From positions 70,879-81,949 of the forward strand of contig JBBDTI010000079.1 in NCBI GenBank assembly GCA_040904565.1: a DNA stretch of 11,071 nucleotides, read 5' to 3'. Positions within the stretch are counted from its first letter, which is position 1, and every line of letters begins with the position of its first letter. The notes beneath the pieces were generated by a model. It had not been told where the DNA came from, ran no database searches, and saw nothing but the letters and a program-made list of their open reading frames with translations. The position numbers and the translations under genes were made by a program. Shown in pieces: positions 5,842-6,013 of this stretch. This stretch comes from Rhodothermales bacterium (lineage in GTDB: Bacteria; Bacteroidota; Rhodothermia; Rhodothermales; VXPQ01).

Positions 5842-5877
5842 AAAAAAAGCCCCTCTCGGAGTGTTCCGGAGGGGCTT
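5842..5877 (-). terminator. Intrinsic terminator of the cys operon leader (attenuator terminator)
   Basis: The minus strand reads AAGCCCCTCCGGA-ACAC-TCCG(A)GAGGGGC-TTTTTTT, a GC-rich stem with one bulge and a 7-U tract. It ends about 37 nt before the cysteine synthase ATG and is oriented to stop transcription into the operon. Confidence 0.9.
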
Positions 5878-5959
5878 ACGTGCGGATGGCGTCGTTATCG
5901 CATCAGGTATCACCTGGCGGACTCGCTGACGTCGGATCGTGTACACACACGTTGCCCCT
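5870..5959 (-). promoter_or_regulatory. Antiterminator helix of the cys attenuator
   Basis: Minus-strand AGGGGC-A-ACGTGTG (5959-5946) is complementary to CGCACGT-AA-GCCCCT (5884-5870), which includes the terminator 5' arm, so the two structures are mutually exclusive. Confidence 0.8.
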
Positions 5960-6013
5960 GCGGCTACAACAACAGCAGCAACAACAACAACAGGATGTAA
6001 TACTACAATTCAC
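5903..6013 (-). CDS. Poly-cysteine leader peptide (MNCSITSCCCCCCCCCSRRGNVCVHDPTSASPPGDT)
   Basis: Nine consecutive TGT/TGC codons at 5992-5966 plus two other Cys codons, with an in-frame GTG at 6013 (alternative TTG at 6103) and TGA at 5905-5903. It lies immediately upstream of the terminator and cysteine synthase. The start codon is uncertain. Confidence 0.82.
   Translation of the reverse strand: MNCSITSCCCCCCCCCSRRGNVCVHDPTSASPPGDT

Follow-up and report, generated by a model that had tools for sequence, protein, structure and literature searches.

The classical leader-peptide attenuators are those of trp, his, leu, thr, ilvGMEDA/ilvBN and pheA in Enterobacteria, and the his leader contains a run of seven His codons. 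The 11,071-nucleotide (nt) stretch of Rhodothermales DNA analysed here, referred to as the window, carries an element that appears to follow the same logic with cysteine (Cys) as the amino acid sensed. It is a predicted ribosome-mediated leader-peptide transcription attenuator on the minus strand, in which a short open reading frame (ORF) with nine consecutive Cys codons would respond to charged tRNA-Cys and control a cysM-mec-cysO/moeZ operon. The probability of this reading is put at roughly 0.85. The element is real and conserved, and it is very probably functional, its function being a prediction from sequence.

Leaders with runs of Cys codons have been described in other lineages. In mycobacteria, leaderless poly-Cys ORFs attenuate translation through sequestration of the ribosome-binding site (RBS) (Canestrari et al., 2020; bioRxiv 10.1101/834739), and the available part of that preprint contrasts this mode with terminator-based models and also summarises the classical amino-acid attenuators in its Discussion. 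A later article merely cites the mycobacterial poly-Cys work in its accessible portion (PMC13236596). For other Actinobacteria, the excerpt available of Seliverstov et al. (2005; PMC1262725) describes Cys leader peptides 'without obvious terminators'. Outside Actinobacteria, a predicted cysS motif in Rhodobacterales was all that was found in the literature covered, which did not include subscription journals and supplements. This motif, uORFC-8-2, consists, in the part of the source at hand, of an upstream ORF with two Cys codons and a terminator predicted upstream of cysS (Brewer et al., 2021; PMC8632094). Within the same coverage no Cys attenuator was found for Bacteroidota, Rhodothermus or Acidobacteria, and in PMC2965389 the word 'cysteine' occurs only within a reference entry. 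A previous reading of the window, made from the letters alone and here called the sequence-only reading, had seen no precedent for a terminator-based Cys attenuator in a non-actinobacterial lineage; in view of the prediction of uORFC-8-2 (PMC8632094, seen in part) this was too strong, while for cysteine biosynthesis operons and for this phylum nothing earlier was indeed found. Searches against Rfam gave no match at the window leader (E up to 1) and none in ten related loci (E up to 0.1). Nor did they detect any sequence relationship to uORFC-8-2, the presence of this motif in Rfam 15 being unverified. A match to IRES_Bip in locus L013 (24.5 bits against a threshold of 40) is located elsewhere and was taken as chance.

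The leader is composed of the following parts.

5903 to 6013, minus strand: leader ORF with GTG start, 36 codons and TGA stop, predicted product VNCSITSCCCCCCCCCSRRGNVCVHDPTSASPPGDT* (read and translated)
6013 to 6011, minus strand: GTG start codon of the leader ORF (read from the sequence)
5966 to 5992, minus strand: nine consecutive Cys codons (7 TGT, 2 TGC), the proposed sensor (read from the sequence)
5936 to 6009, minus strand: 1:2 hairpin of Cys codons 1-6 with the antiterminator strand, a candidate anti-antiterminator or pause hairpin (folding)
5945 to 5964, minus strand: region 2, the 5' strand of the antiterminator, GCCGCAGGGGCAACGTGTGT, within the leader ORF (duplex, covariation, folding)
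5905 to 5903, minus strand: in-frame TGA stop of the leader ORF (read from the sequence)
5865 to 5885, minus strand: region 3, the 3' strand of the antiterminator, covering the entire 5' arm of the terminator (5875-5865) (duplex, covariation, folding)
5849 to 5875, minus strand: terminator hairpin of 11 pairs with one bulge and a 4-nt loop (folding, alignment)
5842 to 5848, minus strand: U7 tract of the intrinsic terminator (read from the sequence)

The Cys run begins seven codons after the GTG, in the order TGT x4, TGC x2, TGT x3, and two further codons (AGC CGC) separate it from AGGGGCAACGTGTG at 5959-5946; region 2 as a whole begins 1 nt past the run and its core 6 nt past it. The partner sequence CGCACGTAAGCCCCT (5883-5869) overlaps the 5' arm of the terminator hairpin, which reads GCCCCTCCGGA/ACAC/TCCG-A-GAGGGGC (5875-5849). 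The antiterminator strand is situated entirely inside the leader ORF, and the stop codon lies about 40 nt beyond this strand, 27 nt ahead of the terminator arm and 57 nt from the T-run. Hairpin and U7 tract together (5875-5842) end 37 nt short of the cysM ATG, with which they make no contact. The positions that the sequence-only reading had given for the Cys run, the antiterminator strands, the terminator and the stop are all correct on the minus strand.

Like the classical attenuators, the element has a short ORF in which codons for the end product stand in tandem. Its 1:2, 2:3 and 3:4 helices exclude one another, and an intrinsic terminator separates the ORF from the first gene; as in the his leader the codon run is long, here with nine Cys codons. 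It differs from the classical attenuators in the amino acid that it would sense and in its Rhodothermales lineage, in having the antiterminator strand wholly within the ORF and a region 2 that is not masked by a ribosome at the stop, and in a 1:2 helix that is not clearly conserved. With the mycobacterial poly-Cys ORFs, as far as the available text of the preprint describes them, it shares unannotated upstream runs of Cys codons and, as proposed here, ribosome pausing that depends on the cysteine supply; and as in the mycobacterial 'ribulon', where several cysteine-related operons carry such ORFs, three operons do so in this genome. According to the same text the mycobacterial mRNAs are leaderless and without an intrinsic terminator, while here there is a terminator with an antiterminator, a 5' untranslated stretch is likely, and the phylum is a different one. 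In contrast to RBS sequestration, the conserved duplexes are those of the terminator and antiterminator, which stop short of the cysM ATG by the 37 nt mentioned above. The Actinobacteria leaders of PMC1262725, in the excerpt available, likewise are short ORFs with a Cys run upstream of cys operons; unlike them, the present leader has the run in mid-ORF and a conserved terminator. uORFC-8-2, as presented in the accessible part of PMC8632094, also comes from outside Actinobacteria and is predicted to attenuate by way of the ribosome, using Cys codons and a terminator with a U-tract, but it has two Cys codons in the first stem, controls a tRNA synthetase gene, belongs to Alphaproteobacteria, and is a prediction only.

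Conservation of the Cys run among relatives, and covariation of the helices, had been proposed as a check on the sequence-only reading, and both are observed. The relatives' genomes contained 15 loci with a CysM orthologue at E <=1e-78, one of which begins at a contig end. In 13 of the remaining 14 loci at least three TGY codons stand in a row 120-190 nt upstream, and after them come a GC-rich hairpin and a T-run; in L023, with 57% identity, no Cys leader was found upstream of the CysM orthologue. A Cys-rich frame occupies the same position in all 18 Rhodothermales-type loci among 80 named loci (four of the 18 duplicate the earlier set), and in all five further loci of the same order from a phylum-wide sample, which brings the total to 32 distinct relatives with a Cys leader before the CysM orthologue. 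The leader of Roseithermus sacchariphilus MEBiC09517 (CP030158.1, locus L042/L019), a cultivable relative, is one example and reads MRFITRCCCCCCPCCCTAGPGQRRGRTAPA*. Of the relatives with sequence ahead of the Cys codons, 31/31 have an ATG, GTG or TTG at a distance of 3-63 nt from the first one. Among 27 relatives examined, all have a hairpin (-13.0 to -20.8 kcal/mol) with a T-run. The placement of the stop is equally constant: in 32/32 leaders the first stop of the Cys frame precedes the terminator arm by 23-45 nt (median 31), whereas in the other two frames the position of the first stop varies widely, from 88 nt ahead of the arm to 1451 nt past it. At the scale of whole genomes, a covariance model of the Cys leader finds matches in 29/151 genomes; this count is a lower bound, as G030 was missed although its locus L021 matched in a small search.

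The pairing of region 2 with region 3 has been kept while the sequences changed. Cognate region 2:3 duplexes have a mean energy of -27.6 kcal/mol, compared to -22.4 kcal/mol for non-cognate combinations; none of 10000 permutations reached the cognate mean, and 17/27 cognate duplexes are better than at least 97.5% of their own shuffles. The leaders form two subtypes, GCCCCTCC and GCCTCTCC, which MAFFT placed four columns out of register, making that alignment unusable for antiterminator counts. For this reason the 16 first-subtype leaders, with the antiterminator as structure, went into a covariance model, and all 33 leaders were aligned to it. In the resulting 33-row alignment the paired fraction of the antiterminator cells is 80.0%, while shuffled alignments have 66.4 +/- 1.1 (0/500 as high). 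Double-sided changes occur in 13 of 17 pairs, a number reached by 11/500 shuffles. There are 80 double-change cells against 28.6 in the shuffles (0/500), and the covariation score of 0.368 compares with 0.180 after shuffling and 0.07-0.12 when partners are slid. In the terminator, pairing extends to 94.1% of the cells; shuffling gives 89.7 and sliding 45-73%. One column in the 5' arm of the terminator, occupied by C or U, takes part in both helices: with the 3' arm it forms C-G in 18 and U-A in 12 leaders, and with region 2 it forms G-C in 20, A-U in 8 and G-U in 4, and is never unpaired. An alignment-free tabulation agrees on this three-way covarying column.

The window leader is not the only one of its kind in the genome. 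The 4.02-Mb genome has four runs of five or more consecutive TGY codons, three of which precede sulfur or cysteine genes and have terminators. The two besides the window leader are given below.

Genome G000, contig C83, about 73040 to 73270, plus strand (L008): leader MMLCSAVDGCCCCCMDSHTQAELSDAMIRFVC* with a terminator of -27 kcal/mol and T8, before TP_methylase (CobA/CysG-type) and phosphoadenosine-phosphosulfate (PAPS) reductase genes (cobA-cysH)
Genome G000, contig C84, about 44420 to 44200, minus strand (L119): leader MMPMIVIRIPYMPTAACCCCCSNACAPCVPVVGDGFKRRSS* with a terminator of -21 kcal/mol and T7, before an NIR_SIR sulfite reductase gene

The distance from stop to T-run is 66 and 65 nt, respectively, similar to the 57 nt in the window, and the terminators are unrelated in sequence to that of the window. 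The fourth run, at C31:46388, was rejected as a leader, being part of a 131-codon open frame without a terminator. A looser scan (at least four Cys per eight codons, a hairpin, and T5 or more) gave eight candidates with strong terminators only in the three units; the five others were rejected as weak (T5 runs, hairpins of -11 to -17). With two more such units, the ribosome would coordinate a small cysteine regulon.

These data also bear on the trivial explanation that a chance run of Cys codons lies beside an ordinary terminator and that there is no regulatory unit. TGY repeats can arise by slippage, and a simple scan for consensus terminators did not flag the terminator of the window; both count in favour of chance. 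Such a unit would hardly be kept in 32/32 related Rhodothermales loci counted as leader carriers, with covarying helices and a stop placed in one frame only, nor would three of the four long TGY runs of the genome then be expected before sulfur or cysteine genes. The comparative data thus already contradict an origin by chance or artefact, which was rejected on conservation, covariation and the frame-specific stop and is given next to no probability.

Another possibility is that the small ORF encodes a functional Cys-rich micropeptide, for instance a metal- or redox-active one, the hairpin being its own terminator with partial read-through to cysM. Cys-rich peptides can bind metals, and the frame is open with a start codon in all relatives. 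However, the leader peptides, which counted from the nearest start have 23-46 codons, are dissimilar apart from 4-9 Cys residues, which vary in spacing and are sometimes interrupted, and past the Cys run it is the ability of the nucleotides to pair with the terminator arm that is conserved. The units furthermore sit specifically before genes of cysteine synthesis and sulfur assimilation, in three places in one genome. The codon choice also points away from a peptide product: TGT makes up 139/190 of the leader Cys codons (73%; window and 32 relatives), against 23% of the Cys codons in long ORFs of the source genome (61% G+C), from which alone this background is taken, so that the rarer Cys codon is favoured in the leaders. 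The micropeptide explanation is accordingly regarded as scarcely credible.

Folding of the window leader is consistent with an attenuator. The 186-nt leader as a whole reaches -71.7 kcal/mol (z -3.5, 0/200 shuffles as good). Of its parts, the 1:2 fold (6009-5936) has -27.6 kcal/mol (z -3.1, 1/200 shuffles as good), the 2:3 domain (5964-5865) -37.4 kcal/mol (z -2.0), and the 3:4 terminator (within 5890-5842) -23.8 kcal/mol (z -5.45, 0/200 shuffles as good), with -20.3 kcal/mol for the 11-pair hairpin alone, which is followed by U7. The three folds are mutually exclusive in the window. To simulate the ribosome, the folds left out all RNA as far as 13 nt past its A site as well as region 4, which does not yet exist at this stage. 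In 27 leaders the 5' arm of the terminator was then sequestered with a median probability of 0.76-0.82 when the ribosome stood at Cys codons 1-3. This median dropped to 0.50 once the last Cys codon was reached and to 0.36 for a ribosome at the stop. Judged by coordinates, a ribosome stalled around Cys codons 1-7 would leave the core of region 2 free, and one at codons 8-9 would begin to cover it.

The predicted course of events is as follows. When Cys-tRNA is scarce, the ribosome would stall at one of about the first six or seven Cys codons, hold the 1:2 hairpin open and leave region 2 free. The 2:3 helix could then form ahead of the transcription of region 4, the terminator would be blocked, and RNA polymerase would enter cysM. 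When Cys-tRNA is ample, the ribosome would pass region 2 toward the stop, and as region 3 emerges, region 2 would be either covered by the ribosome or recaptured in the 1:2 hairpin behind it. The 3:4 hairpin would then form, and transcription would stop at the U7 tract. The sequence-only reading had let the ribosome disrupt the antiterminator from its position at the stop (5905-5903), and while the attenuation logic as such is supported, this detail is not, as a ribosome there no longer covers 5964-5945. It would reach to about 5892 with its trailing edge at about 5920, leaving both region 2 and region 3 uncovered. With cysteine in ample supply, something must therefore keep the antiterminator from forming: the passage of the ribosome over region 2 and/or the 1:2 hairpin, which would re-form behind it.

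Several observations weigh against this reading. The constrained folding, also suggested as a check beforehand, supports it by the difference between stalled and terminating ribosomes, but at equilibrium the minimum free energy (MFE) fold of the window keeps the terminator at every simulated position of the ribosome. The best terminator-free fold is 11-19 kcal/mol worse, and among the relatives the terminator is lost from the MFE fold in only 9/27 with the ribosome at Cys codon 2. As equilibrium folds retain the terminator, the choice of fold, and with it antitermination, must be kinetic. Fold choice is kinetic in the classical attenuators too. Even with no ribosome in the simulation, sequestration of the 5' arm is predicted (median 0.73 in the 27 leaders), from which it follows that the 1:2 hairpin is not a general safeguard. 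In the relatives the 1:2 helix has a median z of -0.75 and involves Cys codons in 8/32, so that its conservation across the 32 relatives does not appear established from the sequences. For the antiterminator, 10/27 cognate region 2:3 duplexes do not clearly beat their own shuffles, the duplexes visible in the two other units of the genome are no better than shuffles (z -0.5 and +0.5), and the counts in the 33-row alignment come from an alignment fitted to the tested structure with related rows. The simple consensus terminator scan missed the window hairpin and listed only a weak 5-pair site at 5841-5826; the one-base bulge may be the reason why it passed over the hairpin. Finally, the leader starts with GTG, and a Shine-Dalgarno sequence is not evident in the window sequence.

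Switching between 2:3 and 3:4 helices is common to riboswitches and to attenuators that depend on a protein. The helices might thus answer to a protein or small-molecule effector, in the manner of a riboswitch or an antiterminator protein, or to Rho, with the Cys codons playing a minor part. For the terminator-less actinobacterial Cys leaders, Rho-dependent termination has been proposed (PMC1262725, in the excerpt available). Neither the window nor the ten related loci match an Rfam family, however, and the stretch joining regions 2 and 3 shows little conservation. The position of the stop is tightly constrained in the Cys frame only, and units that are unrelated in sequence share nothing but the Cys run, the spacing of the stop and the terminator. 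An effector of this kind is for these reasons held to be highly improbable.

Leaders of this type extend beyond the window's nearest relatives. In another genus the model finds two copies per genome in 7/7 genomes sampled. Genomes G020 and G047 carry two units each. In G020 there is a second homologous leader, MQVPGLFPCCGCPCCCPHTGGACCTCSLCG*, with a GCCCCTCC-type terminator (L146, G020:C1, 259-400), located 7.5 kb upstream of the cysM leader and before genes for a TP_methylase and a siroheme synthase, which are followed by a rhodanese gene. Loci labelled Acidobacteriota, mostly Pyrinomonadaceae, have a different Cys leader in 10/36 cases, for example MNKTPRKNPTCCCCCKEHRLRFGVRNL*. Nine of these have a terminator (L071, L072, L076, L094, L105, L108, L109, L113 and L114), and in L059 none was found. 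The Acidobacteriota units are unrelated in sequence to those of Rhodothermales, but their stop lies 23-44 nt before the terminator, which matches the Rhodothermales spacing, and in three of them the region 2:3 complementarity beats all 300 shuffles. By the same criteria no Cys-rich leader was seen in loci from Tepidisphaerales/Tepidisphaeraceae, Phycisphaerae/Phycisphaerales, Kryptoniota/Chrysopegis, Armatimonadales, Capsulimonadaceae, Kiritimatiellia, Spirochaetia and Actinomycetota, nor in the uncultured-Bacteroidota locus L058 and the 'uncultured bacterium' locus L095.

Other classes of the same phylum were represented by 21 loci with a CysM orthologue. Two of them (L144 and L145) have a leader with a terminator, and in another a leader with three Cys is accompanied by a weak hairpin resembling a terminator. 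In four, the poly-Cys run is found at the extreme C-terminus of the leader, about 70-80 nt before cysM, and no terminator was found by the scan. The leaders of L125, L126, L127 and L129, from other families of the phylum, end in CCCC or CCCCC right before the stop, at this same distance from cysM. In L126 and L127 the Cys codons themselves make up the 5' arm of a hairpin that is followed by a weak U-rich stretch, and a stalled ribosome might block such a hairpin directly. There may thus be two architectures, one with a mid-ORF Cys run, an antiterminator and an intrinsic terminator, and one with a C-terminal Cys run inside the 5' arm of the hairpin. On balance it appears, with some reserve, that attenuation by Cys leaders is a widespread and repeatedly invented control, at the level of the regulon, of sulfate assimilation and of CysO/CysM-type cysteine synthesis in Rhodothermales, other Bacteroidota and Pyrinomonadaceae (Acidobacteriota), with at least two architectures and in place of regulators like CysB or CymR.

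The terminator-less leaders of these other families lend some support to translational attenuation as in mycobacteria, where a stalled ribosome would unmask the cysM start or couple its translation and the hairpin would be merely structural. The only poly-Cys leaders established by experiment act by RBS sequestration, as stated in the available text of bioRxiv 10.1101/834739, and in several relatives the T-run ends at most about 10 nt from the estimated cysM start. In the window itself the hairpin does not come near the ATG, as described above. The perfect U7 in the window and the T-run after the hairpin in 27/27 relatives would be unneeded for masking an RBS, and the conserved alternative helix is aimed at the 5' arm of the terminator. 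Translational attenuation is hence judged improbable at this locus, and transcription attenuation by the leader peptide is preferred.

The genes on either side of the leader are the following.

4821 to 5804, minus strand: cysM-type cysteine synthase (PALP family), first gene under the proposed control (PF00291, E 1.2e-72)
4387 to 4845, minus strand: mec-type JAMM/JAB peptidase, overlapping the end of cysM (PF14464, E 2.4e-26)
2883 to 4367, minus strand: ThiS-ThiF-Rhodanese triple fusion in a single frame of 494 amino acids (PF02597, PF00899, PF00581)
6236 to 6976, plus strand: divergent upstream gene without a Pfam match (ORF listing, Pfam search)

The Pfam matches to PALP/CysM, JAB/Mec and ThiS-ThiF-Rhodanese bear out the operon that had been assumed from the letters. 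In the M. tuberculosis pathway the sulfur carrier and the activating enzyme are encoded by separate genes. The triple fusion corresponds to a CysO sulfur carrier joined to a MoeZ-type activating enzyme, and the operon as a whole to the CysO-thiocarboxylate route to cysteine, as judged from its domain content and the M. tuberculosis pathway. The leader is located in a divergent intergenic region of 431 nt, and a homologue of the divergent gene has the same divergent position in L011/L039. Since this gene is the only upstream neighbour, the terminator serves no other gene, and its assignment to some other gene was rejected. No independent homologues were seen in the relatives' loci for two plus-strand frames (5625-6038 and 5939-6202) and one minus-strand frame (6166-6702); what matches 5625-6038 is an antisense shadow of cysM and the leader. 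The lineage is Rhodothermales, which agrees with the non-actinobacterial origin supposed in the sequence-only reading: the named relatives are Rhodothermales, among them the Roseithermus locus L042, and the closest named loci are from Rhodothermales, Salinivenus and Salinibacter metagenome-assembled genomes. Farther away in the window there is a tRNA-Leu (GAG) gene at 7812-7896 (minus strand) and the 3' part of another tRNA at 11018-11071 (minus strand), cut by the window end. After the cys operon, on the same strand, a GH113 glycoside hydrolase (352-1704) and a 347-amino-acid frame without a Pfam match (1556-2599) overlap by about 150 nt as called.

Two further features are found upstream of the leader ORF or at its start.

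6116 to 6123, minus strand: GAACTTTT, a promoter-like (-35-type) conserved motif (read from the sequence and counted in relatives)
6010 to 6036, minus strand: mini-ORF of eight codons (ATG...TGA), the stop of which overlaps the leader start as GTGA (read from the sequence)

The sequence TATAGC (6100-6095, minus strand) lies 15 nt downstream of GAACTTTT, and the pair is situated about 80-100 nt upstream of the leader GTG. The pattern GAAC.TT occurs in the 220 nt ahead of the first Cys codon in 25/30 Rhodothermales loci with complete upstream sequence, and its reversed control in 0/30 of them; in the whole genome the motif is rare (39 copies on both strands). Two GAACTT copies are also present upstream of the sulfite-reductase leader in the source genome. 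The motif GAACTTTT may be the -35 element of a dedicated sigma factor or the site of a regulator, its role as a promoter being putative; if the conserved pair is a promoter, its position upstream of the GTG favours a leadered transcript. The GTG itself matches, codon for codon, the first ATG of the closest relative, L010, in an alignment made by eye. L010 also has a mini-ORF, of six codons, that ends in an ATGA overlap with its leader start. The overlap of mini-ORF and leader may reflect translational coupling or be due to chance.

The logic of the element is that of the textbook; new are the amino acid to which it would respond, the genes that it would control, its phylum and the apparent regulon. 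No earlier description was found of how cysteine biosynthesis is regulated in Rhodothermales, the wider Bacteroidota or Acidobacteriota, and ordinary annotation probably misses such small ORFs. The alignment of 33 sequences and the covariance model offer a direct route to annotating these units, for which a stop placed 23-45 nt ahead of the terminator in the Cys frame only is a candidate design rule. If the proposed mechanism is true, cysteine would join Trp, His, Leu, Thr, Ile/Val and Phe among the amino acids under classical terminator-based attenuation, and these bacteria would provide, next to the translational case of mycobacteria, a second and independent cysteine regulon coordinated by the ribosome.

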